IMG/VR virus record: IMGVR_UViG_651324045_000004
Coordinates: 1 to 64,000 of that record
DNA length: 64,000 nucleotides
Direction: 5' to 3' (one strand)
Source of the DNA: a virus
This document shows positions 23,043-64,000 of this stretch, piece after piece. A program made the position numbers and the translations under genes. The notes beneath the pieces are model-generated. The model did not search any database, was not told where the DNA came from, and saw only the letters and a list, made by a program, of their open reading frames with translations. Each line of letters begins with the position of its first letter. Position 1 is the first letter of the stretch.

Positions 23043-23110
23043 GTTTTCCTTTGTCATTAAACAAGTTGTTTTCAGAAACTAAAAAACAACTTGTTTTCAC
23101 ATTTTACTTA

Positions 23111-35493: not shown

Positions 35494-35569
35494 TGGTGCC
35501 CAAGCAGGTGTTGAACCTGCATCATCGGACTCAGCATCCTCTCGACTTACCGTTTTGTCGCATTGGGCA
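35494..35569 (-). tRNA. tRNA-like element 1: 7-bp acceptor stem (TGCCCAA/TTGGGCA), D-stem CGAC/GTCG, T-arm GCAGG-TTCAACA-CCTGC. The anticodon arm is imperfect.
   Basis: Folded by hand. The anticodon stem has mismatches, so this may be a degenerate or unusual tRNA. Confidence 0.35.
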
Positions 35570-47084: not shown

Positions 47085-48626
47085 CTATTTAAGCGTAAGT
47101 AAATTGCGAAGCTCTGTATTCTCTCGTCTGATTTCTTCCATCTCACGTGACAGCACCTGGATAGCGCCAATAGCGTCCATCATCAAGGGGTTAGTGTCTA
47201 GTACAAGTTTTTCAATTGTCTCTATACGTTCTGGCTCAATCTCATTACCACTTTCATCCAAGATGGCAGGATGGTTTATTACTCCTTTGCTAACCTTCAC
47301 ATAACATGGGTCAATTTTCTGAATTTGTTGAGCAATAACACCTCGACGCAGACGCTGGCGTTCATCGTCGTTATAGATAAATGTAACCAGATCCATAGCG
47401 TTGATATTCTGCAATGACTGTAAACCATCAGTGGGTTTAATATCACGCTTGAAATTTTTATCTGAAGTTGCTGCCCATGCCACATCCCCACGTTGACTAT
47501 TCCAAATCATCCCATCGCTGCGATGATGCCAATACTGAACCGCCGCACCATATCCCTTGACCTGAGTTACTAAACGGTGGTTATAACCTATGTGTTCCTC
47601 AAACCAAAAATTCGCGCCAGCGTTCCCGTTTCCATCAGAGCCTACAGTTGCGAATTGGCTACACAAGATTGGGGCAACTCGAATATCACCGATATTTCCG
47701 CCGGGGTCACTGTCATATTGCGCAATTAAACCAGCCCTACTCGCAGCGCGTACATACTTATCGGCTTTGATACCCTCCTGCGCGCGAATATTTTTGGAAA
47801 CTCGAAGACTGCACTCGAACCCTAATGCGACCGGGTCATCCGCAATAATTCGGTGAGTATAGTCTGCCGTGCTATTCCCATAATGGAAGTCGATATACGG
47901 TGTTGTATAGGAAAGCTCGATACTTTGCGATCTAACCTGATAATCACTTTGTATAATACCTTTAGCATAAAGTGAATTCGCGACTTTGACGTCACCGTTA
48001 GCTTCAACGCCAAAAATTTCAGTCTGCCCATCAGTTGCCGATATCCGGTCTTGATCACTTCGAACGACTGAGAATCGAGATGATTTTCCCACCATAACCT
48101 TCCCATAGGTTCCGCTTTTCTTGATAAGACCTATGTCGCCATTTTTTCCGAGGATAAAACCGGAGTCGTCACTGTCGAGACTTTGTGTGCCGGTGTAATT
48201 ATTACCTCCGGCAAGCTTCGCCATTCCCTTAATAGCAGGAACAGTAACTGACGTTCCGGTAATAGGATCAGTCATTGTAATGTTGCCTGTCGACGTCAGC
48301 GCGGTCGACCATCCTTCAACAACACTCCGCCACAGAGAAAAGGCGCTGGCGAGTTGGTTTGCAAATGCGGAGGTGCTGGCTGTCTCTGATGTGATAATGC
48401 CATAGGACGCCCCAGAGAACGCTGTCGTGATGTCTCGGGTAAGGGTCAGCTGCGTGTCACTGTCGACGGATTTAATCGCGTACAAGTCCGCGCTCCCGTT
48501 CCGATACACGACAAGAATGGAACCCTGTTGAACGCCAAGAGCGGTCTGCGACCACTTAGTCGTTACACCGGTCACTTTCGCCTGATTTGCAGCACCAGTT
48601 ACGGTGCCTACTTCATACATACTCAT
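47085..48626 (-). CDS. Tail fiber / side fiber protein with a C-terminal peptidase S74 intramolecular chaperone (autoproteolytic) domain
   Basis: C-terminal SDKNFKRDIKP...LVTFIYNDDE (Ser/Lys dyad module), preceded by a Gly/Ser/Thr-rich fibrous region. Confidence 0.8.
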   Translation of the reverse strand: MSMYEVGTVTGAANQAKVTGVTTKWSQTALGVQQGSILVVYRNGSADLYAIKSVDSDTQLTLTRDITTAFSGASYGIITSETASTSAFANQLASAFSLWRSVVEGWSTALTSTGNITMTDPITGTSVTVPAIKGMAKLAGGNNYTGTQSLDSDDSGFILGKNGDIGLIKKSGTYGKVMVGKSSRFSVVRSDQDRISATDGQTEIFGVEANGDVKVANSLYAKGIIQSDYQVRSQSIELSYTTPYIDFHYGNSTADYTHRIIADDPVALGFECSLRVSKNIRAQEGIKADKYVRAASRAGLIAQYDSDPGGNIGDIRVAPILCSQFATVGSDGNGNAGANFWFEEHIGYNHRLVTQVKGYGAAVQYWHHRSDGMIWNSQRGDVAWAATSDKNFKRDIKPTDGLQSLQNINAMDLVTFIYNDDERQRLRRGVIAQQIQKIDPCYVKVSKGVINHPAILDESGNEIEPERIETIEKLVLDTNPLMMDAIGAIQVLSREMEEIRRENTELRNLLTLK

Positions 48627-48673: not shown

Positions 48674-51600
48674 TTAGAAAATCCCCATCCTCACACGGAG
48701 ACGGTTGTTTGAATCATAGACTTCGATTTTACCGTTTGTAATTACCGTTCTGGAACTACCCGGCCCTGAGCCATTTATATTCATCGTTCCATCGCGAGAG
48801 ATTCGCCAACCTCTAACGTTTTCTTGGAAACCCGAACTCATCAAATCACCGACCTTGGCGCTACCTATTGACCCATCCTTGATGAAAGCCGCGTTCATAT
48901 AGGTTACACCATTATCAATCACAAACGGAGTCGTCGTATTGCCGTTCGATGTATTAATTAGCGCGAAGCGGTCTGCCTGAACCAAGAACTGGCTCTGCAT
49001 ATTTTTACCATCAACACCGAGAGCGATACCCGCCGCATACTTCTGCCCGTTGTTGTTGGTTTGCATTTTCACCATCCAGGTACTGTTCAGCGCGTCATTG
49101 TTTGAAACAGCCTCTTGCAGCGTCTGGATAGATGCAGATTGACTATTCAATGATGCGGTCATGTCAGTCTGCGTTTTTGCCATTGCGCTAATCTGAGTCG
49201 CCTGAGTCGCCTGAGTCGATTTGATAGACGCGATACTCGTTGTCGCCGAGTTCAGATCAGCCTGGTTTTTGATGTTGGCCGAAGCCTGGGCATCAATCTG
49301 AGACTGAAGACTGGTGTTCAACGATGCCTGAGTGCTCTGACTGTCCGAAATGGTCTTAGACAGCTGATCCACTTTCGAAGAAGACGCGTCTACCTTCGAC
49401 TGCATGGAAGACAGTTGCGACGTTTGGGCAGTCACTTTCCCATCGATGTCGCTGACCTTCGTCTGCAACGATGAGATTGCTGTTGCGTTTGCATCCGCCG
49501 TAGCCTGTGCATCCGCAGCATCAGTGATATCGGTAATGACGAAATCATCAATGTACACCGCGTATCCAGGTGTGTTGGAGCCACTCTGACCACGAGTAGA
49601 AATCCATACATGGCTACGGGTAACGCTCGGACTCACTTTCACTACACCAGTAAACTTAACCCACTGGTCGCGACCGCCAAGACCAGCCTCGTTGAACGTA
49701 ATGCCCTGCCAGTCATTCCCACCATCTTTGTTGATGGAGTGCAGACCAACGACCACAGTCCAGCCAGACGGCGGGGCTTCACTTGCCGGCATCATAGCCC
49801 AAAACTCAACGCGATATTTCGCGCTCTGGCGTACCGCAGAATAAGAGCCGATCGTCTTGTCGGAATTCCCACTGGTATTGGCCGGGCGAGTAACCTTCAG
49901 ACATTTGTTGCCGCTGCTCTTGAAGTCCGTCGTAACAATCGCAGTGCTGCCGCCCAACTGCTGATTGTTGTCATAGGTTTCGAAAGTACCGTCGATCCAC
50001 GGGTTACTCTGGACCTTCAGCGTATTCAGGCTACTCTTCAGGTCAGTGACACTGTCGCTCGCAGAAGACAAGTCTTTGCCTTGCTGCGTAACCGTGTTCT
50101 GCAGTGACTGAAGTGCCGAAGCGTCGGCCTTGCCAGAAACCGTGTTATTCAACGAATTAAGGCTATTGCTCAGATTCGTGATGCTTCCGGTGTGACTGGA
50201 AACAGTACCTTCTGCACTGGTAACTCGCGAAGTCAGACTAGCAACCGCATTGCTCGTCGCGTTGATGTTCACTATGTCAGTGATATCGATGAAGTAAAAA
50301 TCATCGAAATACTGATTACCTGATTTGAGGGACGAGTTGATAGAGACATCAACACTACCAGATACCGTCGCCTTCCAAGTCCCGGAGATCTCCTTCCAGG
50401 TCGAGCCAGTAGGAAGGTCTGTCGGCTTAAACATGAAATCAGCGAGCAGAGACGAGTTGCCGATACGCAGTTTGTTATTGCTCTGATTATCGACAACGGT
50501 GCCAGACTGACAGCGAGCAAACACGCCGATTTTGTAGGTGCGATCTTTCGTCACTGCGATGCTTTGGGAGACTGTCCCCGTACCGGCCCCACATGACAGG
50601 ATCTTACTTCCCGAATTTGGCGACTGAGCATCAATAACCTTTATAAATGACGCGCCGCCGCTGAAACCTTCCAGACCGCGCTCAAACGATGAGTTGGTCA
50701 GAAGGTTTCCAATGATTTTTTTCGACGCGTCACTGTCCGCAACCAGATTGGCAAGTCCGGTATTCGTGGCACTCAGGCTGTTCTGCAGGTTGGTGACATT
50801 ACCGCTCTGCGTGGAAATATCCTTACCTTGCTGTGTTACCGTGTTCTGGAGTGACTGAAGCGCCGTTGCGTCAGCTTTCTTGTCGATGTTGCTGTTCGCT
50901 GCTACCAGTCCATTCTGGAGACTCGTGATTGCGCTACTGGACGAGGTAATATCTTTACCTTGCTGCGTTACTGTGTTCTGGAGTGTGGTAATCGCCGATG
51001 CGTTTGCATCTGCTTTCATCATCACGCCACCAGCTGCTCCAAGCCCCATCATTACGCCGTTCACGAACTCGACTGAGGTCGAAATGTGGGCGGTGCCGTC
51101 GCCACCGGTTGGCGCACGCAGTTCCAGACCATCGCCCGGTTTCATGCCTTTGCGGCCAAGGAGGATATAGGCACCACGATACGGCAGAGAGTTGACTACT
51201 TCGGATGTACCACCAAGAGATTCCAGAGCAGACAATATCTTACCTCGGTTGCCAGATGGCTCATCGAATGTCAGGACGCAAACGTAAGTGCCACTAGCCA
51301 ACGCCTCGATATCAGCCGACATCGTGGCGCCATTATTCGCGCTACCAAAGACATCGTATGTTTTGGAGGTCGCAATCACCGTTGATCCGTCGCTTTGTTT
51401 TGCAAAAGTGACCAACGCCCAGCTGCGACCAGGGGTAAACAGGTTCTTGCCGCTTTCATCAAAAACCCCAGGAGTTACGCTGTTGCCATTCCCTTTCGCC
51501 GTTACCGTAAATACAGTGCGACGAGTCAGTGACGCTTGCATGGAGGTAATGTTAGTGCCAGCGGCAGAAATGTCTTTTCCCTGCTGCGTGACGGTGTTCT

Positions 51601-54600
51601 GAAGTGTCTGAACCGTAGTGGAATCAGCCTTCTTAGACACGTTGTCATTCGTCGTCTTCAGACTGTTTTCCAGAGATGTCGTCCGACCGCCCACAGAGCT
51701 GATTGCATCACCCTGCGTCTGAACCGTACTGGTCAGCGAATCAATAGCGGAACTATTGGCCATAGTTCCTGCGTCTCGACGAGTGACGACGACGTTATAG
51801 ACTGTCAGACTCGCGGTAGCGCCAGTGTTCGGTTGCAGCCTTGCTGTGGTCGCGCCGACAGGAACGACAAACGTACCGCTTACAGCCTTCTTCTCACCAG
51901 CTTGATAACTCAAGTTGCTTGCGTAGATGGTGGCGTTAGAGAGACTAGGGCCGTCAAAACGCAACCCCCATCCCACAGTAATTGCCTGACCCGCAAGACA
52001 CATCATGCTTAAATCCAGTGTATCACCCGGTGTCACTTCAAACAGTGGTGAGACTGGCTGCCATCCAGCTGAACTATTTACAGCCGCGTAACCGTCGACA
52101 GTTGTCGCCGCCCCACCCCAGCCCTGTGCGCCGTTGAGCATCTTGGCGTTAGGGATGAGGTTGGCGCCAGACGTCAGACTATTCTCGATGGACGTCACAC
52201 GAGTTCCCTGGCTGGAAATATCTTTGCCCTGCTGCGTCACCGAGTTCTGTAGCGTCTGAAGCGCAGCTGAATCAGCCTTTGTCGAAACCAGATTGTTAGT
52301 GGTCGACAAATCACCCTGAAGCTTAGTGATCGCGGTATTCTGCGTGGAGATATTGTCTTCAGTTTTCTGGACACGAGAGGTCACAGACTGAATGGAGCTG
52401 CTATTCGCATCAACCGTAGTCTTCAGCGATGACAGATCGTTAGACGATGCCATATCGCTCGGCGCCGGAGACCACTCTGTAGGCATATTGCCAACTTCCA
52501 GCTTAGGGCTGGTGATAGAGACAGTCTGATCTTTCGTCGAAGATGCTTGGATGCGTGCAAGGATTATTCTCTTAGATCCAGTTCCCGGCTTCTGTTTCCA
52601 CTTAACCCAATAACGAACCCACTCAGTTGTCAAAGTGAATGACATACGACCATCAACACTGCCGTCTGACACACCTTGACTACTAACCCCAGATGTCGTC
52701 GAGTTAGGGTTGTAGAAGTAAGCGGTCATGCTTTGACCGTTCTCACCACCTTTTGCAAAGAAACTGTAAACGTACTCTGCATTGTCGACTGGAGCGTCGA
52801 GAGTAATCTCCTTGAGATCTCGGTAGGAACTGCCCGCTTTAGTAGTCGCGCTAATCACCGCATTGCCACGGAAGATTTCATTGGTTTTACCAGACCACCC
52901 GGCCATGTCGCCTGAGTTTTTGATCAGGTTGACGCCACCAATAGAAACGTTACTTAGTGCGTTGCTGAGATTCGTAACACTGTCGCTTTGGCTTGCAATA
53001 TCCTTACCTTGCTGAGTAACCGTGTTTTGCAGCGTCTGAAGAGCCGAAGCGTCCGCTTTCTTAGCCACAGCAGAGTCGGTATCACTCAGACTGTTCTTCA
53101 GAGAGGTGATCGCCGCGCTGTTGCTTGAAGTCTGATCTCCAACCTTATTGACATTCGAGTTGATCGAATTAATTGCCGTAGACAGAGAAGAAACACCCAG
53201 ACCGGAATATAGTTCGGCAACTTTGTCACCCAGCTTGAAGCCCAGATTAATATAGGCGTTTCCCGTCCACTGATTCACCAAAAATTCAACGGTGTTCCAG
53301 CCCGAAGACAGTACAAAGCCAAGAGTAGCGGTGCCTGATATAGCGACTGCCTGACGCACGCCATTAACGTACACAGCGCCAGAATCATCAAATACGCGAG
53401 AACCCGGAGACACCGAGATGGTGGTATCCGCAGCAACACGAACCATTGCCTTGTAGTGCGCAACTACATATGAACCTGCACCCGAGAAATCCAGTTTTGC
53501 GGCGTCGGCAACTTCATCCATGAATACCGGGGAAAGTCCCTGAATATCGCTAAATGTAGGCTCAGCAGCGGCGCTGGATAACTGGCATTTATAGATGCGG
53601 CGTGACCAGGTGCCTTGCTTGCCGTTAACAATCTGATTAGACAGAGCGGTGATATTGCTGGTGTTAGAAGCAACATCTTTTCCCTGCTGATTGACGGCAT
53701 TTTGCAACGTTTGCAGTGCTGATGCATCGGCCTTTGTGCCAATGGCTTTGTTTGCCGTAGCCAGGCCATTATTCAGGGTTGTGATGCTGTCGCCCTGCGA
53801 GGTGATGCTGTCACCTTGCTTGGACACGGTCGTCTGTAGCGTCGACACCGCACTCGCCGTCGCATCGGCTGTCTGCTGCGCATTGTAGGCATCAGTGACA
53901 TCGGTGATGACGAGATCGTCGATCAGGAAGGAGTTTCCAGCCTTAACGCTGCTAACGTTAGGAATAGAAATACGCGCCATCGCCTGCTTGATGCCGCTCT
54001 TACTACTTTTCAGATAGCCACTGACTTTCGTCCAAGAGTCGGCGGACAGATCTTTCGCCGACTTAATGAGCGCCGGCCACTGCCACGAGTTGTCCTGGTA
54101 CTGCAACGACATCCCGATCGCAATCTGAACTGCCCCGTCCATCGTCGTGCTCTTAGCATCCAACTTCACCCAGCACTCAACATAAAACACCGCATTATCT
54201 CGAACCTGGAATCCGCTGAAAATGTGGTTATCACTGTTGTCGGTCGCATTGGCATTGTAGTCGTTCGGACGCGTCACACGGATACATTTGTTTCCGCCGT
54301 GAGAATCGTCAGTAGTCACGATGACGCGACCATTGGTGATATTGTACCCGCTCGAATAGCTCTCGAACGTCCCGTCTGGCAGGATGTTTGCGCCGCGCTT
54401 AGACTGCTGATTCAGCGAGCTGTTCAACGAAGTGATGGCGTCACTGCTGCTGCTAATCTTATCTTCGGCATTACTAACCCGAGTGGAGAGGTTATTTAAA
54501 GCTGTCGCATCCGCTTTCTTAGCCACATCACCCTTTACAGTGTCAACGGTGTTGGTCAGAGTCGTGATTGCATTGCCTTGGCTGATCAGCGTTTTACCCT

Positions 54601-57600
54601 GATCAGTAACGGTGTTCTGCAACGTCTGCAACGCAGAGGCGTCTGCCTTTTTCGACACATCGGTCTTCGTAGAAGTCAGATCGTTTTGTAGCTTGGTGAT
54701 CGACGTTCCCTGAGAACTAACCGTGTCACCTTGCTTGGTCACTTTCGTTGACAGATCGCTCAACGCGCTGGCCGTTGCATCGTTATTGACTGCATCAGTA
54801 ATATCGAACACCTGGAATGAATCAATCCAGATTTCCGCGTTACTTGGGTGGCAGTAGATACCAAAAGCCTGACCATCCGCGCCAGTTCTCGGAGAGAAAG
54901 ACGTATCCCATGTAATAGTCTGCCAGTCGCTCGTTAGCGTGACGTTTTTATCTTCGTAATTACCCTCAGCAGACCCATTGAAGTTCCAGCGGCGCAGAAG
55001 CATGTTCATCGAACCCGACACACCCTTGGCGCGAACGATATAGCGGAATTTGCGAGAGCCATTTACCGGGGTTGGTTTTTTACCATTGGCAAAAAGACCC
55101 GGAGAGGTTGCATTCACTTTCAGCATTCGAGCGCCAGCCGAGTTTTCACCGTATGCACCAAATGCAACAATGCTGCCTGTCGTGCCGCTGTTCTGCTGCG
55201 TCCTGAACGCTGAGCCATCACCTTCAAGATTGGCATCCTGAATCAGATTGTCGCCCATGTTCGTCATGGCGCCGACGCTGTTGTTCAGACTGGTGATCGC
55301 GTCACTGGCTGAAGTGATGTCCTTACCCTGCTGCGTTACTGTATTCTGGAGGGTATCCACCGCAGATGCGTCTGCCTTCTTCGAGACGTTCGCGTCTGTG
55401 GTCTTGAGATTGTTTTCCAGGTTCGTTGTGCGATTACCAACGCTGCTCAAATCTTTGCCCTGCTGCGTCACCGTACTCTGTAACGAAGACAGCGCAGAAG
55501 AGTCCGCTTTTTTAGCAACGTTTGCATCAGTTGTCGCCAGACTATTCTTCAGTAAAGAAATATCGCTGGACGCCGACGTTATATCCTTGCCCTGCTGAGT
55601 CACTGTGTTCTGCAGCGAGGCCAGTGCAGAGGCATCCGCCTTCTTGCTAACGTTAGCATTCGTCGCGGTCAGCTCATTCTGAAGCTGGGTGATGCTGTTG
55701 CCTTGAGACGTGATTGAGCCTTCGGCTTTAGTCACACGGCTATCAAGACTACTCAGCGCCTGACTATTGCCAGAAATCGCGTCAGACAGATCCTCGGAAG
55801 CCGGCGACCACGAGGTGCCCTTATTCCCTTCTTCCAGTTTCACCTGGTAGATCTGACAACCGGTCTTCTGGGACTTATCTTCAAACAGGAATCGCAATCC
55901 GGCAACGCCTACGAAAAGCGTCGAACCAGATTCAGCTGTAATTGTTCCAACCCATTTGTACAAGTCACCATCACGCGTAACGATGCCGTTCTGCGAATAG
56001 TAACGCAGAGACCATGAGTCAGTCCCGACAGCGGAACGACCGATGACTGCAGAAGTGAACGGCTTAGTTGTTCCGAAGCCATCCGCGTACTCTTTAAACC
56101 AAAGAGTCATCGTGTACTGAGTTTTAACAGCGATATTTTTACCAACCAGACCCGTAATCGCTTTCAGCTCATAACTGGTGAAGCCGGAAGTCGGAGACAG
56201 ACACAGAGCCGGGGCGCCGCTCTTATCGGAGTTACGAAGAAGGTTGCTCGCGCCAATAGACAAGCTATCAACGTCGTTTTTAAGCTGGGTGATACTGTTA
56301 CCCTGAGACGAAATGGAGCTACCCTGCTGCGTCACGGTGTTCTGGAGAGCGTTCAGCGCCGTCGCATCAGCTTTCTTTGCAACGTTGGCATTGGTGGTGC
56401 TCAGGTTGTTCTGCAGGCTTGCAATGCTGCTTGAGGCTGAAGCAATGTCTTTGCCCTGCTGGGTAACCGTATTTTGCAGCGTAGACAGCGCCTGTGCATC
56501 TGCCTTATTCGCTAGATTAGCGTTGGTCTGTTCGAGGCTGTTTCGCAGATCAGTAACGCTCTGCGAGGTGCTCGTGACGCGATCACCTACGGTGCTGACG
56601 TTTGAGGTGACGGCGCTAATGGCATTCGAAAGCGCGTTCATCCCAAGAGCAGAATTCAGCTGGGCTACCTTCTCGGACAGTTTAAAGCCGAGGTTAATGT
56701 AAGCCTGACCAGTCCATTGGTTTACCAGGAACTCAACCGTGCTCCAGCCAGCTTTCAGATCAAAGCTAACCGTATTCCAGCCTGCATTACCAAAGGCAAC
56801 CCTAACACCGTTCACGTACACGGCGCCCGTATCATCAAAAACACGGGACCCTGGTGCCATAGTGATGGTGGTATCAGCATTAACCTTCACGAAGGCTTTG
56901 TAATGCGCGATCACGTAACTGCCGGCGCTCGCAAAGTCCAGTTTTGCCGCGTCAGGAACCTCATCGATCGAGATTGGCGCCTTACCGTTGATATCGCTAA
57001 AAGTCGGCTCGGTGGTATTGTTCGCCAGTTGTACGCTGTATACGCTACGCACCCACATGTTCTGGCGGCCGTTAACCATCTGGTTTGACAGCGAAGTGAT
57101 GCTGGTGGACTGCGACGCAATATCTTTACCCTGCTGGGTTACAGTATTCTGGAGAGAAGACAATGCGGAGGCGTTGGCGTCGATTTTGACACTATCTGTC
57201 ACATCGATGACATAGAAATCATCAAAGCAACGACTCCCGGCTGTCAAATAGTTACTCAGCGTAACCGGAAGCTTGGCTGTCTCCGTAGCCTTCCAGCGAC
57301 CGGAAATCAGCGTCCAGTCGGAACCGATCGTCCCGCTATTGTACGGTCGCTCAAACACCGGCTGACCAGCGGAGTTACCGATCCGCAGTTTGTTGTTGCC
57401 TGCTCCGTTATCAGTGGTCGCTCCGAGATCCTTAACCCATACCCCGATTTCATACGTCCGACCCTGTACAAAGCTTACATACTGTCCCGGTGACACATTA
57501 CCAGCATCAACCTTCAGCGCCCGTGTCCCACCATGTGGAGTGGAAATCTCAACCACACTGGTTGCCGCTGACCGTCCGGTATAACCATCCAGTCCTCGCT

Positions 57601-60600
57601 CAAACGACGGGTTTACGATGAGGTTATTCGGCATCGCGGCGGACGCGTCAGTATCGGCGATCGCGTTGTTCAGTGAGTTGTTCAGTTGAACGATGCTGTC
57701 CGCCTGGCTGGATGCTTTATCCTCGGTTGCGCTAACACGAGATGTCAGATCATTGACCGCAGTCGCGTCCGCCTTCTTCGCCACATTGCTGTTTGTGGTG
57801 TCGAGAGACGTTTTGAGATTGGTGATGCTGCTATTCGCGGCGGAAATGTCTTTACCCTGCTGCGTCACTGTTCCCTGCAGTGCGGTCAGCGCTGTCTGGT
57901 CGGCCTTTTTACTAACATTGGCGTTGGTAGTGCTCAGGTCATTTTGCAGTTTGGTGATCGACTGACCCTGAGTCGAAATGCTCGAACCCTGCTGATCCAC
58001 TGACGTCTTCAGAGTCTGCAATGCAGAAGCGTCAGCCTTGTCCTTCAGGGATGATTTAAGACCGGTGATGTCCGACGCCATCGCTTTATCCTGAGTGTTC
58101 AGGGTGTCGAGGGACTTGTTGATGTTAGAGACGCTGTCGTCCACCTTTGTCTCAAGAGACTGGCGAGCCATGGCCTCTGCCTTATCCGCGGTGACACGCG
58201 CCAGCTGCTCCTGGAAGATAAGACCGGAACCCACTTTAGAAAGATCATTGCCTTCGTAAGATCCGCGCATCTGGACGGCCAAGGCATTGCGGTTCGCAGC
58301 TTCAGCGGCATCAGCGTCCACACGAGCGGACTTCTCATCCTGCAGAGCGGCCATGCCGGCGCCAGGCGTCGGGCGCCCTACTGCAACCCAGTCAATCAAC
58401 AGGTTGTTTGTGTCGCTCTGGTTCTTCAGGAAATCAAACCGGAAACGGCGAATGGTCGTGGAAGCCCGCCAGTCAATGTCGTGAATGGTCAGCGTGGCAA
58501 CGCCATTAGCATCATATTCTGGCTCGTCGATAACGAGAGAGCGAGACTCACTCCAGCCCTGCTCTGATGCCCCGATCCAGTACAGTTTGCCTGACCATGT
58601 CGGTTTACCTACTTTCTTGATGCGCAGCTTTAGGAAACGATAGGCATTGGCGTCGATAACCATGTTATTTGGCGAGCGGCAAGAAGCTGTGCTGTTTGAA
58701 GACTTCAACCAACCATCATCGGTAACGGACATTGGGACAGTGCCACCGTCGTCTTCTGTCCATCCCTCACTGTTGGTATCAAAGTACCAAATTTTCAGGC
58801 TATCGAACTGTTCACCGGTGCCAGCGGCAATCTGGGAAATTTGCTGAGCCAGAGATTCGTTAACCGTCTGCACCTGCGTAGACAAGTTGCTAATCTCGGA
58901 CTGGCGATTATTCTTCTCTTGAAGAAGAGCGTCAGCACGGGCGCGTGCTTCGTCCTCAATGCTCGAAATTCGATTTAAGGTTTCGGTATTGATTGCGTTT
59001 GCAGTTTTGATGTCCAGTGCGGAAACGGCCGACGCACGATCTCTGGCTTCTTTGCTGATTTTTGCATCGAGTGCGGCTGTTGCGTCCGAGACAGCCTTCG
59101 CACGGTTACTTGCTTCAACCGCAACGGAGTCTGTAATCGCTGAGGCACGAGCAATCGCTTCATCGGAGACAGCTTTCGCGCGCGCGGTCGCTTCATCGGC
59201 AACGGCTTTGGTTCGAGCCTCCACTTCCGCCGCAATCGCATTGGTACGCGCGGTTACTTCGTTTGAGATGGCAGTGGCGCGTATAGACGCCTCATCTGCG
59301 ATAGCTTTATTACGTGCGGTCGTTTCATTAGCAATGGCTTGTGCGCGATCCTTAGTCTCTTTGTCGATGGCGGTGCTTAGCGCTTCCTTGGCCGACTTGA
59401 CAGCGTTAGCCGCCTCAGTGCGAGCGTCATCAACCTGGGCCTTAGTCTCACTTTTCGCTTCATCTATGGCCGCGTCCACCTCCGTCGCCACAGCCTTGCT
59501 GTTAATGTCAGCAATCAGATCCTGACCCAGCTCGGACTCGGTGATTTTATTTTGCAGGAACGAAAGAACGTCGCGCGTCGTTGCGACCGTCGCTAGTGGA
59601 GAGTTCAGCGCACTGAGCATTCCACGTTTGTTGGCTGCACGTACCCAATAATACCAGGTGACAGAGTCTTCAAGACCGTTGTGACTGAAGGTTGTGCCAG
59701 ATACCTTGGCAATCAGCTGCGCTTTAGACTTATCGTTGGTCTTGGATGCCAGAACCTCGATGTGATCCAAGTCAACGGAAGCCGGGTTTACCCAATTCAG
59801 AACAATTGAACGATAATCGCCTACCGCAGTTAGACCGGTCGGGGCATCAGGCGCCGTCATGGTTCCCAGAACTTTGTAGGTGATGCTGATAGGATCAGTT
59901 TTGCGACCACCAACAGAAACAGCGTACACCTGGAAGTCGTACTGGCCGTTCTCCGCTACTCCACGAAGTTCGAACTGTTCTTCAGTTACGCGCTCAGATT
60001 TCCAGTTTGAAACATTCCCGGCATCGGAGCGGCGCCAGCTGATGTAATACTGAGCCGACTTGCCCTGCCATGTAGCGGTCAGAGAAACGGACAAGTTACC
60101 CGGAGAGGACAGATAAGTGCCTTCGGTAATCGCCAGACCTGACGGCTTTGAGAACGTTGGGTCAAGAACGGTCGTATTTTGCGGGATCAGCTGTGCGCCG
60201 CTATCAATAGCTTCGTATTTGGTCGGGTTGTTCTGAATAGCCGTGATATTGAACGACGTACCATCGTCACCCTCAGCAACGCTCACAACGCGTGCTTGTA
60301 GCGGAGTTAAGTCTGGTTGAGCAATGACCCACACTGCATCGCTTACCGGCGTCTCATTGGAGCTGAGAGCGGTTTTAAACGTGACGGTGGTGATGTTCTT
60401 CCCATTCTCCAAAATATCACGCCCAACCATTTTCCCTTCTGCGCTGAGGAAGGTGATATGGTTTCCAACTGAAGTCAGATCAACCGGAGCGTCCAGCTTG
60501 ATGCTATTGGAGGTGTAGCCGATAATACGACCACTGTTGCGACGGCCAGCGCGGAATTTATCTGCGATCAGCACGATGTCGCCAGGCATCAGGAATACAG

Positions 60601-62107
60601 AGTCCATACCTACTGCAAAGGTGATGACGTCAGATTCCATGCGAGATGTGTAGAGCGTCCAGAGACCAACACGATGCGCCTGGCCGCGTGAAGTACAGCC
60701 GAATGCGACTGACTCAGTTTTGCGGATGCCATAGCGTTTAATCGCTTCCTGATCTTCTACATACTCGACGCTCTGCTTGTAACCGTCCTCTTTGTTGTTG
60801 TAGGTGATAAGAGCAACGGAATAGCGATCTTTACGCGCCGAACCTTTGTATGCAAATGAGCCATTTACCACGTTGCTGTTGGAGAACAGCATCACAGGGT
60901 CTGCTGGAGAATCCTGCGTGATGTGAACCATGCCACCAGCCCAATAAACCATGCCACGGAATGCCCCTGCGATGTCCTGCACGACGCGATAAGCATCTTG
61001 GCGACTGGTAATCTGGGTGTTGATTGCGAAGCGCTTCTCTTTGCCACCGAAGCCATCATCAACGAACGCATCACAGTAGCGACCAATCTGATACAGCTCG
61101 CCGATGTTAATCATCGACTCCTGAACAAACTGACCCAGACCGTAACGAGTGTTCGTCAGCAAGTCGAAGAGAATCCACGCCGGGTTGGAGGATGATGCCA
61201 GCTTAAATGTACCGTCCCAATTGCCGTCGTAGGAGTTCGTGTCAGCGTTATAGTTTGACGGGACACGAATTTTCAAACCTTTAATCAGGTATGAACGAGT
61301 CGGCATTGAAGAACCGAACTGCTCTGAGTTGATTTTCAGGCCAACGAGCGCAGAGTTCGGATAGTTCAGGCTGGTATTGACAATCTCACCGATCGAATCG
61401 ATGTAGGTGTCATCGTAGAGATAGCTGTTATCGGTATGATCTTCAGTCAGACGAATGGCACGCAGAGTATATGCCTTTGCCGGCTTCGGTAAGTCCAGAA
61501 CATAACTACGGTAATAAACACCTGTCTTTTTCGCGGTCAGAGAAATGGTTGCGTTGGATTCTCCCTCTGCAACAACGTCAACAAAGCCGCCGCCATTACC
61601 TGCGTCGATCTGGAATTTAAACTGGACTGTCGTACCGTTAGTATCGCCGCTCTTTTTATCGATGCTGCGAAGTGAAGGAAACTTCATCACCACACGAACG
61701 CGATCGCTGTCCGCAGAATCCAGAGACACGTTAACCTGGCTCGTTTGCTTCAATTGACGCCCTACTGATTTCGGCGTTTCAATGAAGTCAAAACCATCGA
61801 TGACACTTTGATCCTGAGAACCGTCGCGGAACCACCAGGTTACACCGCTGAAGTTGTAGGAATTGTCGCTATTCTGGAGCGGCGTGTCGTTCAGGAAGAT
61901 GGATTTTGCCCCATCAATCAGACCACCGATAACACCCTCACCCAGCAAATCCAATACAGAAGCCATAGCGCGGCTGTTTACCGTGTCATTAGCCTCCACT
62001 GGCGTCCTTGAGCTACCGCCACCCTTACTGCCGCCGCGTCCTGAGATAATCAGGCCGTGCGCGACTAATTGCGAGAGACGGCTTTTTTTGAAATTTGGAA
62101 CTTCCAT
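48674..62107 (-). CDS. Giant central tail fiber / tail tip protein. It is a homolog of lambda gpJ, with about 3000 aa of inserted repetitive fibrous and carbohydrate-binding-like modules (4477 aa).
   Basis: Collinear with lambda J over the N-terminal roughly 1150 aa (LNDTPLQ...GVTWWF, NSALVGLKINSEQFGS, PSNYN...WDGTF, FGCTSRGQAHRVGLW). The C-terminal roughly 150 aa is also J-like. The interior has dozens of about 33-aa repeats (QNTVTQQGKDI...TTNANVAKKADA) and repeated NPSFE...FDDFYVIDVTD modules. Confidence 0.95.
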   Translation of the reverse strand: MEVPNFKKSRLSQLVAHGLIISGRGGSKGGGSSRTPVEANDTVNSRAMASVLDLLGEGVIGGLIDGAKSIFLNDTPLQNSDNSYNFSGVTWWFRDGSQDQSVIDGFDFIETPKSVGRQLKQTSQVNVSLDSADSDRVRVVMKFPSLRSIDKKSGDTNGTTVQFKFQIDAGNGGGFVDVVAEGESNATISLTAKKTGVYYRSYVLDLPKPAKAYTLRAIRLTEDHTDNSYLYDDTYIDSIGEIVNTSLNYPNSALVGLKINSEQFGSSMPTRSYLIKGLKIRVPSNYNADTNSYDGNWDGTFKLASSSNPAWILFDLLTNTRYGLGQFVQESMINIGELYQIGRYCDAFVDDGFGGKEKRFAINTQITSRQDAYRVVQDIAGAFRGMVYWAGGMVHITQDSPADPVMLFSNSNVVNGSFAYKGSARKDRYSVALITYNNKEDGYKQSVEYVEDQEAIKRYGIRKTESVAFGCTSRGQAHRVGLWTLYTSRMESDVITFAVGMDSVFLMPGDIVLIADKFRAGRRNSGRIIGYTSNSIKLDAPVDLTSVGNHITFLSAEGKMVGRDILENGKNITTVTFKTALSSNETPVSDAVWVIAQPDLTPLQARVVSVAEGDDGTSFNITAIQNNPTKYEAIDSGAQLIPQNTTVLDPTFSKPSGLAITEGTYLSSPGNLSVSLTATWQGKSAQYYISWRRSDAGNVSNWKSERVTEEQFELRGVAENGQYDFQVYAVSVGGRKTDPISITYKVLGTMTAPDAPTGLTAVGDYRSIVLNWVNPASVDLDHIEVLASKTNDKSKAQLIAKVSGTTFSHNGLEDSVTWYYWVRAANKRGMLSALNSPLATVATTRDVLSFLQNKITESELGQDLIADINSKAVATEVDAAIDEAKSETKAQVDDARTEAANAVKSAKEALSTAIDKETKDRAQAIANETTARNKAIADEASIRATAISNEVTARTNAIAAEVEARTKAVADEATARAKAVSDEAIARASAITDSVAVEASNRAKAVSDATAALDAKISKEARDRASAVSALDIKTANAINTETLNRISSIEDEARARADALLQEKNNRQSEISNLSTQVQTVNESLAQQISQIAAGTGEQFDSLKIWYFDTNSEGWTEDDGGTVPMSVTDDGWLKSSNSTASCRSPNNMVIDANAYRFLKLRIKKVGKPTWSGKLYWIGASEQGWSESRSLVIDEPEYDANGVATLTIHDIDWRASTTIRRFRFDFLKNQSDTNNLLIDWVAVGRPTPGAGMAALQDEKSARVDADAAEAANRNALAVQMRGSYEGNDLSKVGSGLIFQEQLARVTADKAEAMARQSLETKVDDSVSNINKSLDTLNTQDKAMASDITGLKSSLKDKADASALQTLKTSVDQQGSSISTQGQSITKLQNDLSTTNANVSKKADQTALTALQGTVTQQGKDISAANSSITNLKTSLDTTNSNVAKKADATAVNDLTSRVSATEDKASSQADSIVQLNNSLNNAIADTDASAAMPNNLIVNPSFERGLDGYTGRSAATSVVEISTPHGGTRALKVDAGNVSPGQYVSFVQGRTYEIGVWVKDLGATTDNGAGNNKLRIGNSAGQPVFERPYNSGTIGSDWTLISGRWKATETAKLPVTLSNYLTAGSRCFDDFYVIDVTDSVKIDANASALSSLQNTVTQQGKDIASQSTSITSLSNQMVNGRQNMWVRSVYSVQLANNTTEPTFSDINGKAPISIDEVPDAAKLDFASAGSYVIAHYKAFVKVNADTTITMAPGSRVFDDTGAVYVNGVRVAFGNAGWNTVSFDLKAGWSTVEFLVNQWTGQAYINLGFKLSEKVAQLNSALGMNALSNAISAVTSNVSTVGDRVTSTSQSVTDLRNSLEQTNANLANKADAQALSTLQNTVTQQGKDIASASSSIASLQNNLSTTNANVAKKADATALNALQNTVTQQGSSISSQGNSITQLKNDVDSLSIGASNLLRNSDKSGAPALCLSPTSGFTSYELKAITGLVGKNIAVKTQYTMTLWFKEYADGFGTTKPFTSAVIGRSAVGTDSWSLRYYSQNGIVTRDGDLYKWVGTITAESGSTLFVGVAGLRFLFEDKSQKTGCQIYQVKLEEGNKGTSWSPASEDLSDAISGNSQALSSLDSRVTKAEGSITSQGNSITQLQNELTATNANVSKKADASALASLQNTVTQQGKDITSASSDISLLKNSLATTDANVAKKADSSALSSLQSTVTQQGKDLSSVGNRTTNLENNLKTTDANVSKKADASAVDTLQNTVTQQGKDITSASDAITSLNNSVGAMTNMGDNLIQDANLEGDGSAFRTQQNSGTTGSIVAFGAYGENSAGARMLKVNATSPGLFANGKKPTPVNGSRKFRYIVRAKGVSGSMNMLLRRWNFNGSAEGNYEDKNVTLTSDWQTITWDTSFSPRTGADGQAFGIYCHPSNAEIWIDSFQVFDITDAVNNDATASALSDLSTKVTKQGDTVSSQGTSITKLQNDLTSTKTDVSKKADASALQTLQNTVTDQGKTLISQGNAITTLTNTVDTVKGDVAKKADATALNNLSTRVSNAEDKISSSSDAITSLNSSLNQQSKRGANILPDGTFESYSSGYNITNGRVIVTTDDSHGGNKCIRVTRPNDYNANATDNSDNHIFSGFQVRDNAVFYVECWVKLDAKSTTMDGAVQIAIGMSLQYQDNSWQWPALIKSAKDLSADSWTKVSGYLKSSKSGIKQAMARISIPNVSSVKAGNSFLIDDLVITDVTDAYNAQQTADATASAVSTLQTTVSKQGDSITSQGDSITTLNNGLATANKAIGTKADASALQTLQNAVNQQGKDVASNTSNITALSNQIVNGKQGTWSRRIYKCQLSSAAAEPTFSDIQGLSPVFMDEVADAAKLDFSGAGSYVVAHYKAMVRVAADTTISVSPGSRVFDDSGAVYVNGVRQAVAISGTATLGFVLSSGWNTVEFLVNQWTGNAYINLGFKLGDKVAELYSGLGVSSLSTAINSINSNVNKVGDQTSSNSAAITSLKNSLSDTDSAVAKKADASALQTLQNTVTQQGKDIASQSDSVTNLSNALSNVSIGGVNLIKNSGDMAGWSGKTNEIFRGNAVISATTKAGSSYRDLKEITLDAPVDNAEYVYSFFAKGGENGQSMTAYFYNPNSTTSGVSSQGVSDGSVDGRMSFTLTTEWVRYWVKWKQKPGTGSKRIILARIQASSTKDQTVSITSPKLEVGNMPTEWSPAPSDMASSNDLSSLKTTVDANSSSIQSVTSRVQKTEDNISTQNTAITKLQGDLSTTNNLVSTKADSAALQTLQNSVTQQGKDISSQGTRVTSIENSLTSGANLIPNAKMLNGAQGWGGAATTVDGYAAVNSSAGWQPVSPLFEVTPGDTLDLSMMCLAGQAITVGWGLRFDGPSLSNATIYASNLSYQAGEKKAVSGTFVVPVGATTARLQPNTGATASLTVYNVVVTRRDAGTMANSSAIDSLTSTVQTQGDAISSVGGRTTSLENSLKTTNDNVSKKADSTTVQTLQNTVTQQGKDISAAGTNITSMQASLTRRTVFTVTAKGNGNSVTPGVFDESGKNLFTPGRSWALVTFAKQSDGSTVIATSKTYDVFGSANNGATMSADIEALASGTYVCVLTFDEPSGNRGKILSALESLGGTSEVVNSLPYRGAYILLGRKGMKPGDGLELRAPTGGDGTAHISTSVEFVNGVMMGLGAAGGVMMKADANASAITTLQNTVTQQGKDITSSSSAITSLQNGLVAANSNIDKKADATALQSLQNTVTQQGKDISTQSGNVTNLQNSLSATNTGLANLVADSDASKKIIGNLLTNSSFERGLEGFSGGASFIKVIDAQSPNSGSKILSCGAGTGTVSQSIAVTKDRTYKIGVFARCQSGTVVDNQSNNKLRIGNSSLLADFMFKPTDLPTGSTWKEISGTWKATVSGSVDVSINSSLKSGNQYFDDFYFIDITDIVNINATSNAVASLTSRVTSAEGTVSSHTGSITNLSNSLNSLNNTVSGKADASALQSLQNTVTQQGKDLSSASDSVTDLKSSLNTLKVQSNPWIDGTFETYDNNQQLGGSTAIVTTDFKSSGNKCLKVTRPANTSGNSDKTIGSYSAVRQSAKYRVEFWAMMPASEAPPSGWTVVVGLHSINKDGGNDWQGITFNEAGLGGRDQWVKFTGVVKVSPSVTRSHVWISTRGQSGSNTPGYAVYIDDFVITDITDAADAQATADANATAISSLQTKVSDIDGKVTAQTSQLSSMQSKVDASSSKVDQLSKTISDSQSTQASLNTSLQSQIDAQASANIKNQADLNSATTSIASIKSTQATQATQISAMAKTQTDMTASLNSQSASIQTLQEAVSNNDALNSTWMVKMQTNNNGQKYAAGIALGVDGKNMQSQFLVQADRFALINTSNGNTTTPFVIDNGVTYMNAAFIKDGSIGSAKVGDLMSSGFQENVRGWRISRDGTMNINGSGPGSSRTVITNGKIEVYDSNNRLRVRMGIF

Positions 62108-62118: not shown

Positions 62119-62730
62119 TTAAATCTGGTCAATAGTGATAGAGGAACTTGCGATTTGCGAGCCAACGAGAATTTCTTCGCCGTAGTTCAGCTGAACCGGG
62201 TTTCCCTGATTAGTAGTGTTTTGAGGCCCGTCGAAATAAAACGAGTCGGAGTTATCCGCTTGTCTCACTTCCGGGTTTTTTGCTTGTGGGGATAGGATCT
62301 GAGCCAGACCGCCCATCATCATGCTCATGCCGGCCACAACCAGCGCCGAGGATGTGCCTGCAGTGAAGATTTCTGTGAATGCACCAATGACCACCATCGC
62401 GGCGCCAATCGCGACCTGAACGTAGCCAAGCGTCTTCCCGCCACGTCCCTTTGGTATTGGCGTGATGCGTATTTTCTCAACATCCTTACCGGCGCCTTTC
62501 ATCATGTATTCGGTTTCGTCAACCGACCATGTGGCTCCACTTTTGGTTGTGATTTGAATGTGATAACGGTCGTAAACCTTCGCATTACGACGAATCCAGG
62601 CATTTAAGCCTGGTTTGTTTGCGTCGATAAGGTTGATGGCCTGCGCCGCATTTGATGCGCGGAGACGCCAGTGTCGGCCGAAGCGGTTTGCAAGTGCGCC
62701 GCCCAGCTGGACATGAACTAATTCAGACAT
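62119..62730 (-). CDS. Tail assembly protein I (lambda gpI-like)
   Basis: Similarity to lambda I, including a Gly/Ala-rich hydrophobic middle and the C-terminal GNPVQLNYGEEILVGSQ. Confidence 0.85.
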   Translation of the reverse strand: MSELVHVQLGGALANRFGRHWRLRASNAAQAINLIDANKPGLNAWIRRNAKVYDRYHIQITTKSGATWSVDETEYMMKGAGKDVEKIRITPIPKGRGGKTLGYVQVAIGAAMVVIGAFTEIFTAGTSSALVVAGMSMMMGGLAQILSPQAKNPEVRQADNSDSFYFDGPQNTTNQGNPVQLNYGEEILVGSQIASSSITIDQI

Positions 62731-63521
62731 TTTTCCTTCCCTGTTAATAACGCCCGATGACGCAAATGATGCGTAGTATTTTTCTGGTACATACCGCCGT
62801 AAGTGGCGTGACTGCTTAGCCTGTCGATTTGGTGATGCAGGATGCGGTTGTCACCAACGTAAACAGCGCAGTGATCTGGCATCTTCCCGTACTGAATGAA
62901 GAAGATGTCGCCCTTCTGAGGCTCTTCGCCATGGGCAAGACGGACGAGATTTTCATTGCGATAATTCAGGTCGAGAATGTCGTCGTCGCCCAGATACCAC
63001 GACGGGATATGCAGGTGAGCGTTGGCGTTGATCTCGATATTGAATTCGCGTTTCAGATAGTCTCGACACAGCATCCAGCAGTCGAAGATGCCAAAGACAT
63101 ACGGTCGGCCGGTGTACGGCATTTCAAAGCCATTGGGCGTGATCACTTCCATCTCGCTTAAACGAAACTCGGCATCAATCTCCGGGTTAAGATTTTTCGT
63201 GACGGAGAGGATGAGCCAAGGTAGCTCCGTTGCCTCACAACCAGCGCGGTCGGCGTCAGAGGCCACTGGAGGGCGATCAGTGTGGCTATGCCAGATAGCC
63301 ACAACCTCGCCCTCGTCTTCGGCAGCAATTACGTCTTCGTGATGCATGACAAACTCATTGGCCGGGTCTTCAGAGACGTTTCGCGCCTCAATAAAGCGAT
63401 ATTTCTCCCCCGATGTCTGGACGATGAACCCGCACGCCTCATTTGGATAACGGGCAATAGCGCATTGATATAGCGACTGCGTCACCGCGGAGCCGGCAAT
63501 GGATTTAATATCACTGAACAC
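62718..63521 (-). CDS. Tail assembly protein K (lambda gpK-like; JAB/MPN plus NlpC/P60 domains). Start inferred at a GTG with a GGGGG SD, because the ORF-track N-terminus runs into gpL.
   Basis: JAMM motif AIWHSHTDRPPVASDADRAG. PNEACGFIVQ (equivalent to lambda PRECCGVIAQ). C-terminal NlpC/P60-like Cys/His. Confidence 0.85.
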   Translation of the reverse strand: MFSDIKSIAGSAVTQSLYQCAIARYPNEACGFIVQTSGEKYRFIEARNVSEDPANEFVMHHEDVIAAEDEGEVVAIWHSHTDRPPVASDADRAGCEATELPWLILSVTKNLNPEIDAEFRLSEMEVITPNGFEMPYTGRPYVFGIFDCWMLCRDYLKREFNIEINANAHLHIPSWYLGDDDILDLNYRNENLVRLAHGEEPQKGDIFFIQYGKMPDHCAVYVGDNRILHHQIDRLSSHATYGGMYQKNTTHHLRHRALLTGKEKCLN

Positions 63522-64000
63522 GCGTTGCCCCCGGAAAGCCGCCAAAAGCAATGATTCCGTTGGCGAAGAAGTTTCGCCTGGCCTTGCACGCATCGAGACG
63601 CTTGGTGCAGTAGTCGTCGCTGAGCGATGTGACCTGATTGTTGTTCTTGTCGAAGTACGGGCCTGAGTAGCCACACTCCGCTCCGCGGTATTTCCACGGG
63701 CAGCTGTTTTTGATGATCTGACGTGCAGGTAACTGAACGCCCATCAAATCAAATACACTGGACAGCTCGAACTCAACGCTATCTTTAGTTTCCAGTGTCT
63801 TCTGCTCAACGAACCAGATTTCATCAGGGAAGTGCTGAGAAGCGTCGGCGGTCGCGTTTCCAGATGGGAAGTTCGACGCGTCGAGGAAACGAGCCAGCGT
63901 GCGACGACGCGTGATTGTGCAACCAACCAGATCGTCATTTGCCGCGACTTCGGCTGAAATTGTGCCGCCATAGTTAGAGACGGTCATCTTTGGTCGAGGC
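63511..64000 (-). CDS. Minor tail protein L (lambda gpL-like), truncated by the window end
   Basis: CGYSGP and NGIIAFGGF motifs (equivalent to lambda CGYSGP, NFGGF). The N-terminus lies beyond position 64000. Confidence 0.85.
   Translation of the reverse strand, partial: PRPKMTVSNYGGTISAEVAANDDLVGCTITRRRTLARFLDASNFPSGNATADASQHFPDEIWFVEQKTLETKDSVEFELSSVFDLMGVQLPARQIIKNSCPWKYRGAECGYSGPYFDKNNNQVTSLSDDYCTKRLDACKARRNFFANGIIAFGGFPGATRVQ

Follow-up and report, generated by a model that had tools for sequence, protein, structure and literature searches.

The 64,000-nucleotide stretch of viral DNA analysed here (positions 1 to 64,000 of IMG/VR record IMGVR_UViG_651324045_000004; hereafter the window) comes from a Klebsiella pneumoniae SSU5-like (pKpn-group) phage-plasmid and contains, on its minus strand, a 13.4-kb gene for a protein of 4477 amino acids (aa) that resembles the tail tip protein gpJ of phage lambda at both of its ends. 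We are highly confident that the product is the lambda J-type tail tip hub and central fibre of this phage-plasmid, with the anatomy described below; the coordinates of its parts and of its immediate neighbours are collected in Table 1.

The giant gene is one continuous open reading frame (ORF) from its ATG, with no stop or frameshift in 4477 codons, as a first-pass annotation made from the letters alone had read it. The ATG lies 11 nt from the stop codon of the upstream gene and has a Shine-Dalgarno-like GGTGGG 5 nt before it, and the GC content is ~50-53% throughout, an unremarkable composition. The largest antisense ORFs have no PHROG match, so nothing favours genes on the opposite strand, and scans for promoters and terminators in and around the gene returned motifs at or below shuffle expectation. 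The first-pass annotation had also raised the concern that repeats might have expanded the gene during assembly. No exact internal DNA repeat exceeds 23 nt, and even the best-matching internal pair is <78% identical; because the repeats are so short and so diverged, repeat-driven collapse or expansion is implausible. In addition, intact orthologues are present in many complete plasmids (13 PLSDB plasmid records span at least 80% of the gene), and the only part without a counterpart in the two nearest relatives, a 732-nt cassette carrying module M3, is collinear across both junctions and 99.4% identical in NZ_CP031579.1. These results answer the concern about assembly. An open frame of 13.4 kb together with ratios of nonsynonymous to synonymous substitution (dN/dS) of 0.09-0.14 against close relatives indicates a selected coding sequence and not a chance one. 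The ORF is real and intact.

The N-terminal part of the protein aligns with lambda gpJ (query 23-868 against gpJ 2-835, 32% identity over 871 columns, BLASTP E 2e-120), and the alignment extends through the lambda FNIII region to residue 868. Searches of PDB sequences with the same part returned 8iyk_J (E 4.6e-131 across 28-869) and the F2-pyocin fibre 25vf_A (E 2e-149), and Pfam places Phage-tail_3 at 367-528 (105.8 bits) and fn3 at 670-739. At the other end, residues 4337-4410 align with gpJ 856-931 by BLASTP (39% identity, 76 aa), PF09327 (Phage_Tail_Tip) covers 4327-4453 with 124.9 bits, and the distal domain matches the PDB chains 8xcj_Z (4334-4412) and 8jvm_F. The whole protein matches PHROG 2589 'tail protein' and PHROG 31 'central tail fiber J', and among its PHROG matches are families whose profiles extend over 2200-3700 positions. 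Its score against NCBIfam lambda_TipJ, 545 bits, is under the 1950-bit cut-off of what is an 'exception' model, tuned to near-identical lambda J. The gene order agrees: genes resembling I and K lie upstream in the window, and the full series of tape measure protein (TMP), M, L, K, I and J is found in a 98%-identical plasmid. These matches uphold the earlier assignment to the lambda J type, and the homology of both termini holds in profile searches. The collinear ends, however, are shorter than had been proposed (~870 aa and not ~1150 at the N-terminus, ~80-127 aa and not ~150 at the C-terminus, where the match ends at the point at which the receptor-binding part of lambda gpJ would start), and the segment inserted between them, also predicted, is ~3470 aa long and not ~3000.

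The domains of gpJ follow one another in the order hub, FNIII-1, FNIII-2, alpha-helical shaft (AHS, which includes 841-861), central straight fibre (CSF) and receptor-binding domain (RBD) (PMC11101478). Because the alignment breaks at lambda 835-856, within the region of the AHS, the insertion (aa 869-4336) lies inside the shaft. The giant protein thus has in common with gpJ the hub, the two FNIII domains, the start of the beta-prism CSF and the M-L-K-I-J gene order. In contrast, a three-helix shaft of a few tens of residues in gpJ corresponds here to ~3470 aa of helix and 12 modules, and the total length is 4477 aa against 1132 aa for gpJ.

The insertion is made up of ~1450 aa of helix with an 11/3 (hendecad) periodicity and of the 12 globular modules. 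A KITESELG motif, aligned with lambda 821-835, directly precedes the Ala-rich start of the expanded shaft. Farther along, much of the helix consists of a repeated unit, whose motif and alternation with globular modules the first-pass annotation had recognized but whose period it had put at ~33 aa; the KKAD and QQG motifs are in fact spaced exactly 44 residues, and 44 is 4 x 11. A profile hidden Markov model (HMM) made from 13 copies of this unit detects 15 full and 11 half copies in the protein, the first being units at 1368-1411 and 1413-1455 and a half unit at 1456-1482. The hydrophobic periodicity of the stalk segments, 3.65-3.7 residues, equals 11/3. AlphaFold models aa 1644-1890 as helix, beta domain and helix, and aa 3028-3503 as helix, sandwich, helix, sandwich and helix. 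The mean confidence (predicted local distance difference test, pLDDT) is 67 in both models, with the helices and module M8 reaching 86-93; homologues of these 247-aa and 476-aa segments are almost all partial Klebsiella fragments, and the alignments behind the predictions were shallow for that reason. The long modelled helices (pLDDT up to 93) and the hydrophobic periodicity agree with the earlier suggestion that the repeats are helical spacers.

The modules do not fall at random within this repeat. Before each of M1-M11 stand the opening 24-30 residues of a unit, and after it a 'DA.ASAL..LQ'-like tail corresponding to unit positions ~35-44; all eleven are thus inserted at one and the same phase of the unit. 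If the ~1450 stalk residues formed one continuous helix (~0.15 nm per residue), the stalk would measure ~215 nm, about as long as the tail that a tape measure protein of 1518 aa would predict. By analogy, such a long stalk with interrupting globular domains can be likened to the trimeric autotransporter adhesins, which have long trimeric coiled-coil stalks with non-heptad periodicities, carry globular adhesive domains and vary by domain gain and loss. Unlike the giant J, those are bacterial surface proteins with a membrane anchor; no homology between the two was found, though no search aimed at it was made.

All 12 modules are beta-rich and 146-190 aa in length; M1-M11 lie between repeat runs and M0 lies earlier. 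The first-pass annotation had likened the module that begins NPSFERGL and ends FDDFYVIDVTD to carbohydrate-binding modules (CBMs) of family 4/9. This is borne out by the Pfam score of M1, which also has weak PDB matches to CBM16 (2zez/2zex), and by structural matches to CBM22, CBM4, CBM16 and CBM70. M5 and M11 score just under the CBM_4_9 cut-off, and M10 and M4 are tied to this family only via BLASTP to M1; across orthologues, M4 groups with class A. Structure prediction on repeat and module segments, which the first-pass annotation had recommended, gave beta domains flanked by helices in the two AlphaFold models, and Foldseek with the model that holds M7 and M8 together returned the tandem CBM22 structure 4xup (E 9e-10). 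The single-domain matches (CBM4 1gu3, hyaluronan-binding 4d0q, CBM16 2zez, porphyran-binding CBM 8xmz) belong to this two-module model and are not assignable to either module; CBM70 was among the matches too. The model also matches the central fibre of mycobacteriophage Douge and, among viral models, tail proteins including PblB.

Two further module types are distinguishable. M9 carries an ILEI domain (PF15711; 37.7 bits when the whole protein is scanned, 42.9 bits with M9 alone). M2 and M6, whose cores are 64% identical, fall within the ~250-aa block that had been described as duplicated; fragment-versus-whole-protein searches place the two copies at aa 1644-1906 and 2793-3055, with ~59-67% identity. 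By fold, M2 and M6 appear PA14-like. Against Pfam they give no PA14 hit at E up to 5 and a lone weak, Cadherin-like hit, and their profile finds only a marginal sialidase hit (E 0.02) among PDB sequences. For module classes B, C/H and F, profile searches of PDB sequences returned no significant match. M0 has a weak likeness to the 8gtc Megatron protein, which suggests a domain common to other oversized tail hub proteins. Scans of the giant protein against Pfam, PHROG and NCBIfam found no catalytic family; beta-helix, pectate-lyase, SGNH and sialidase catalytic domains were all absent from these scans, and the fibre encoded downstream has only an S74 chaperone domain. The 12 modules are probably sugar-binding domains with lectin-like folds (CBM4/9/16/22-like, PA14-like and ILEI-like).

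CBM-like beta-sandwiches on tail-tip or fibre proteins are a feature in common with the Douge central fibre gp20 (PDB 8zdp/8zdq), PblB of a Streptococcus phage and other siphophage tail proteins. The Foldseek E-values of 5e-8 and 7e-17 for the Douge and PblB-type comparisons are fold-level matches, with no detectable sequence relationship beyond the fold. In contrast to the giant J, gp20 and PblB are far shorter, do not have the 44-aa hendecad unit and give no evidence of a comparable series of cassettes. PblB binds platelets.

Table 1. Parts of the giant J gene, from the upstream genes to the downstream fibre gene (window coordinates; residues refer to the 4477-aa protein)
Feature	Residues	Coordinates	Strand	Evidence or remark
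gpK-like protein (JAB plus NlpC/P60)		62718..63674	(-)	Pfam Prok-JAB and NLPC_P60; PHROG 30
gpI-like tail assembly protein		62119..62730	(-)	PHROG 32, E 2.7e-56
Whole gene: gpJ-family tail tip/central fibre protein	1-4477	48674..62107	(-)	Single ORF, ATG start
gpJ hub domains and two FNIII domains	1-868	59504..62107	(-)	BLASTP, PDB, Pfam
Start of expanded alpha-helical shaft, Ala-rich 11-residue repeat	869-1106	58790..59503	(-)	11-residue rows in register at 880-1000; periodicity 3.7
M0, globular	1107-1260	58328..58789	(-)	No Pfam match; phmmer to PDB 8gtc_M 'Megatron protein' 525-616, E 6.6e-6 (weak)
Stalk with first 44-aa units	1261-1482	57662..58327	(-)	Unit HMM; periodicity 3.65
M1, CBM4/9-type	1483-1643	57179..57661	(-)	Pfam CBM_4_9 35.3 bits, cut-off 25.9
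M2, apparently PA14-like (by fold), paralogue of M6	1679-1834	56606..57073	(-)	
Cassette of M3 plus 1.5 units, 732 nt (244 aa), window versus pCAVP366-109		55632..56363	(-)	In-register indel
M3, ends in motif EEGNKGTSWSPA, distant relative of M7	1948-2122	55742..56266	(-)	Missing from two nearest relatives
M4, distant CBM-class member, ends FQVFDITD	2280-2453	54749..55270	(-)	BLASTP to M1 and M10, E 2e-4 to 3e-3
M5, CBM4/9-like	2567-2748	53864..54409	(-)	CBM_4_9 23.8 bits, just below cut-off; 35-38% identity with M11
M6, apparently PA14-like (by fold), paralogue of M2	2827-2983	53159..53629	(-)	
M7, beta-sandwich	3054-3243	52379..52948	(-)	AlphaFold 8 strands, low confidence (pLDDT ~55-65)
M8, CBM-like beta-sandwich	3314-3459	51731..52168	(-)	AlphaFold pLDDT ~86-90
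M9, ILEI/PANDER-like	3529-3697	51017..51523	(-)	Pfam ILEI PF15711, cut-off 27
M10, CBM4/9-type, paralogue of M1	3785-3959	50231..50755	(-)	40% identity with M1 across 161 aa
M11, CBM4/9-like	4031-4206	49490..50017	(-)	CBM_4_9 22.6 bits, just below cut-off; related to M5
Distal helical segment	4207-4326	49130..49489	(-)	Periodicity 3.55; weak similarity to repeat units
Beta-prism fibre domain (Phage_Tail_Tip/DUF1983) and short C-terminal tail	4327-4477 + stop	48674..49129	(-)	PF09327, PDB, BLASTP
Downstream tail fibre, 513 aa, C-terminal intramolecular chaperone		47085..48626	(-)	PHROG 1980 'tail fiber protein' E 2e-94; Pfam Peptidase_S74 388-443

The giant gene is under purifying selection over its whole length. 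In comparison with pCAVP366-109, all 11 changes in the hub are synonymous and none is nonsynonymous (dN/dS 0); the stalk, the modules and the last 141 codons give dN/dS ratios of 0.087, 0.107 and 0.015, respectively. A comparison with pKSB1_9A_3 yields similar figures, and against close relatives the insertion spans 0.09-0.14 and the tip 0.015-0.05. Within the same comparison to pCAVP366-109, the last 141 codons (48674-49096, minus strand) have a dS of 0.40, against ~0.06 in the rest of the gene; the pattern suggests a recombination tract of its own that is very strongly constrained.

The architectures of 11 orthologues, written as strings of units and modules, show that they differ by entire cassettes, which have been acquired, dropped or shifted among the repeat runs. 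The 732-nt cassette that distinguishes the window from pCAVP366-109 has its crossover within the conserved ...AAAGCTGATGC (KKADA) codons of two units. The M2 cassette of the window is 96% identical to a differently placed cassette in pRHB30-C05_4, with flanks at 87%. The J gene of pC706_2, a 54-kb phiKO2-like element that encodes SopAB for partition, matches a 1244-nt tract of the window (aa 1850-2263, including M3) at 96.9% identity, and the J hub of pC706_2 has no detectable DNA similarity to that of the window. Because the tract is shared at this level despite the dissimilar hubs, cassettes have been exchanged between unrelated phage-plasmid families. The first-pass annotation had proposed recombinational expansion, and gain, loss and exchange of whole cassettes between genomes at the repeat units accord with its recombinational part. 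Recent tandem expansion was considered and rejected: the internal paralogues are old, 65-78% identical at the DNA level.

Some relatives carry damage or interruptions in this gene. The orthologue in pVH1-2-1 (NZ_CP027801.1) has one frameshift near codon 1804-1824 that divides it into two coding sequences, and the K. oxytoca plasmid NZ_CP011616.1 has a Tn3-like transposon in the giant-gene region. Database relatives of the module segments are mostly 'partial' proteins on 0.6-2 kb contigs of Klebsiella drafts. The giant gene commonly shatters short-read assemblies, perhaps through cassettes common to co-resident phage-plasmids.

The gene of the window is a further member of a known, uncharacterised family of giant J proteins, near the upper end of the size range and not the largest. 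Orthologues run from 3193 to 5171 aa and keep the termini: 48ST307 (3193 aa), phiKO2 Gp21 (3433), the DS-1 plasmid (3480), phage pJN2-26 (4045), E. coli pECAZ155_2 (4052), pC706_2 (4080), K. oxytoca pCAV1099-111 (4141), pCAVP366-109 (4233), pKSB1_9A_3 (4244), pKSB1_7G.2 (4289), NAR688 (4294), pfekpn2511-2 (4297), this window (4477), pRHB30-C05_4 (4494) and pINF102.5 (5171). The last of these (CP110757.1, 1879-17394, minus strand), the largest orthologue seen, has eleven cassettes and a different, longer C-terminal end. The earlier description of the protein as several-fold larger than any characterised J is accurate only in relation to the structurally solved J proteins; phiKO2 Gp21, NAR688, pINF102.5 and hundreds of database clusters share its architecture. 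Gp21 (AY374448, deposited 2004) is annotated in GenBank as 'similar to lambda J protein', two induced Klebsiella prophages, mentioned in 2020, have gp21 homologues of ~4200 aa (PMC7784688), and RefSeq holds hundreds of copies of the orthologues under the labels 'phage tail protein', 'phage tail tip fiber protein' and 'DUF1983 domain-containing protein'.

Two groups of relatives follow this plan. The pKpn/SSU5-like orthologues (3480-5171 aa) have the same locus and termini and 81-98% nucleotide identity over most of the gene; they differ in the set and order of cassettes, the M3 cassette, present in the window and absent from its two nearest relatives, being an example. phiKO2 Gp21, NAR688 and pC706_2 likewise have a J hub, 44-aa units alternating with modules of 156-198 aa, and a DUF1983 tip; the unit HMM finds 21 units in Gp21 and 27 in NAR688 (gaps between runs of 156-198 aa), compared to 26 units and gaps of 146-192 aa in the window. 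The phiKO2-like giants have cassettes in common with the window at up to 97% nucleotide identity, whereas their hubs are only ~33% identical to its hub and their cassettes differ in number and order. They also belong to another phage-plasmid family, the N15/phiKO2-like telomere phages of Klebsiella, which are linear and have SopAB partition and a protelomerase. More distantly, a search of 1.84 billion cluster representatives gave 140 proteins at E <= 1e-30; among the best 150 representatives, 108 have at least 2000 aa, 36 at least 3000, 6 at least 4000 and 2 at least 4477. The distant giants include one from Acinetobacter soli. A tblastn search of phage genomes with the central region matched 173 records, among them 55 of Klebsiella, 34 of Acinetobacter, 14 of Stenotrophomonas and some of Gram-positive phages, the last through shared folds or coiled coils. 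In the literature searched, we found no description of the insertion inside the lambda shaft, of the fixed-phase 44-aa unit or of the sharing of cassettes across families.

The genomic setting is that of the pKpn group, which lies within the SSU5 supercommunity of phage-plasmids (PMC7969092). DNA of the giant gene matches 384 PLSDB plasmids, 375 of them from Klebsiella and most of them ~108-112 kb and non-mobilizable. The best match, pCAVP366-109 (98.2% identity across 95% of the gene), has the genes for the tape measure protein (1518 aa), M, L, K (a C40 peptidase), I, the giant J (4233 aa), a tail fibre, lysis, ParA, DnaB and ligase in that order. In the window, the 513-aa fibre downstream of the giant gene has a chaperone domain of the endosialidase type; beyond it come a 104-aa uncharacterised protein (PHROG 5093, unknown function), whose homologue at the pJN2-26 locus is annotated as a putative holin, and then an endolysin and a spanin. 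Genes for Cor or superinfection exclusion, or for small receptor-binding proteins, had been considered for the region 3' of J on the T1-like pattern; this was rejected, as the tail fibre, the 104-aa protein, the endolysin and the spanin are there instead. Elsewhere the window encodes ParA, DnaB, primase-like, ligase, CobS/CobT-like, DnaE, Rep3 initiator, SbcC-like and ribonucleotide reductase proteins. DnaE (Pol III alpha) is coded by two adjoining ORFs (21880-25483, minus strand), one with the PHP, polymerase and finger domains (23111-25483, 790 aa) and one with an HHH_6 domain (21880-23100, 406 aa). In the replication region, an AAA_5 gene (CobS-like, 416 aa) adjoins a CobT/VWA gene (670 aa) at 25661-29022 (minus strand), and the sole tRNA gene of the window is tRNA-Gln(CTG) at 35495-35569 (minus strand).

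How might such a protein work? We propose that the giant J is the hub and central fibre of the tail, with its shaft expanded into a lectin-bearing stalk that attaches to glycans and evolves by exchange of cassettes; to this explanation as a whole we give a probability of roughly 0.6. Were the protein a trimer as in lambda, the stalk would be one three-helix bundle on the tail axis, extending ~200 nm and displaying 3 x 12 = 36 glycan-binding domains that project outward. Judging from their folds and from the biology of the host, the modules may bind capsule or O-antigen reversibly and multivalently, and a phage with no recognisable depolymerase could thereby attach to the Klebsiella capsule and reach through it. 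The conserved distal prism tip, perhaps together with the downstream 513-aa fibre, would then make the final contact. Specificity would evolve as 'half-unit / module / unit' cassettes are swapped whole when the conserved sequence of the units recombines, a step for which the cassette comparisons above give part of the evidence, both within the phage-plasmid group and with unrelated phiKO2/N15-like phages. On the glycan-binding, host-range role of the modules considered by itself, which we draw from folds and host biology, our judgement is evenly balanced. A bolder form of this proposal starts from the observation that temperate phages of Klebsiella depend on the capsule and are specific for its type, yet have no recognisable depolymerases (PMC7784688). 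In this form, the giant J would be their missing capsule-recognition device, a trimeric hendecad 'bottle-brush' of ~200 nm whose cassettes, drawn from a pool common to unrelated phage-plasmid families, read the capsule or O-antigen type and permit non-enzymatic passage; we put it forward tentatively and consider it somewhat more apt to be wrong than right.

In favour of the proposal, the NAR688 phage, whose protein has the same architecture as that of the window, makes infective virions (PMC12042878). Several observations weigh against it. The NAR688 virions are described as having a 133-nm tail and 'a central tail spike and multiple long tail fibers', and not one very long central fibre (PMC12042878), so that a single bundle and splayed chains are both possible. 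The Ig-like, LamB-binding RBD of lambda gpJ has no counterpart here: BLASTP aligns nothing to gpJ 932-1132, and the giant protein stops 24 aa past its PF09327 match. In lambda, binding by the RBD is relayed via the prism and the shaft, which releases the FNIII domains and opens the tip (PMC11101478); a comparable relay would have to cross a stalk of ~200 nm with no lambda-type RBD, for which the proposal offers no mechanism. Finally, induction of p2 of Kp1604, a pKpn-type plasmid, gave no phage particles (PMC8969562).

The same facts can be read in other ways. The stalk might simply give reach across the capsule, with modules that are structural knobs or hinges and with specificity seated in the distal tip, the 513-aa fibre or both. 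That constraint is strongest at the tip (dN/dS 0.015-0.05), that a separate fibre gene with an S74 chaperone domain lies directly downstream, and that orthologues vary so widely in length (3193-5171 aa) while retaining the termini would all fit such a spacer. Inert spacers are, however, hard to square with discrete cassettes exchanged at 97% identity even between unrelated phage families, and the modules have folds typical of glycan binding and are under purifying selection; we regard this alternative as unlikely. More improbable again is a lectin array that holds virions on mucus, biofilm matrix or plant or animal surfaces and takes no part in choosing the infected cell. Structural neighbours do include PblB and CBMs for plant and algal polysaccharides and hyaluronan, and ILEI and PA14 domains occur in adhesins, but the protein is a tail-tip hub and thus belongs to the infection apparatus, its family occurs mainly in phages that infect Klebsiella, Acinetobacter and Stenotrophomonas, and temperate Klebsiella phages are specific for capsule type.

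It could also be argued that some modules are cryptic polysaccharide-degrading enzymes, since CBMs as a rule accompany glycoside hydrolases and several of the fold matches come from within such enzymes. The failure of the Pfam, PHROG and NCBIfam scans to find a catalytic family, or any beta-helix, pectate-lyase, SGNH or sialidase domain, together with module lengths of 146-190 aa, the size of binding modules, makes a depolymerase carrier very unlikely. Least probable of all is that the gene is a repeat-driven misassembly, a chimera or a decaying pseudogene of a defective element. Many homologues are partial on contigs of 0.6-2 kb, one orthologue is frameshifted and one related plasmid was not inducible; against this stand internal repeats that are short (23 nt at most when exact) and <78% identical, an intact ORF of 4477 codons with dN/dS of ~0.1, collinear intact orthologues in many complete plasmids and the recurrence at 99.4% identity, in an independent record, of the sole junctions specific to the window. 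An artefact or relic is therefore largely refuted.

These findings bear on a group of elements of practical interest. Clinical isolates of Klebsiella often harbour temperate phages and phage-plasmids, which in some cases bring resistance genes with them, and the giant J bears on the question of what sets the host range of these elements. Its shaft raises a question of mechanism for tail opening as modelled for lambda. At the same time, with twelve exchangeable lectin-like domains, in three copies each if it is a trimer, this tail-tip protein is an obvious candidate for the determinant of capsule specificity, and the fixed phase of module insertion, the crossovers in unit codons and the sharing of cassettes between SSU5-like and phiKO2-like elements make the host-range idea concretely testable. 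If it is true, the cassette repertoire of a phage could predict the K or O type of its host.

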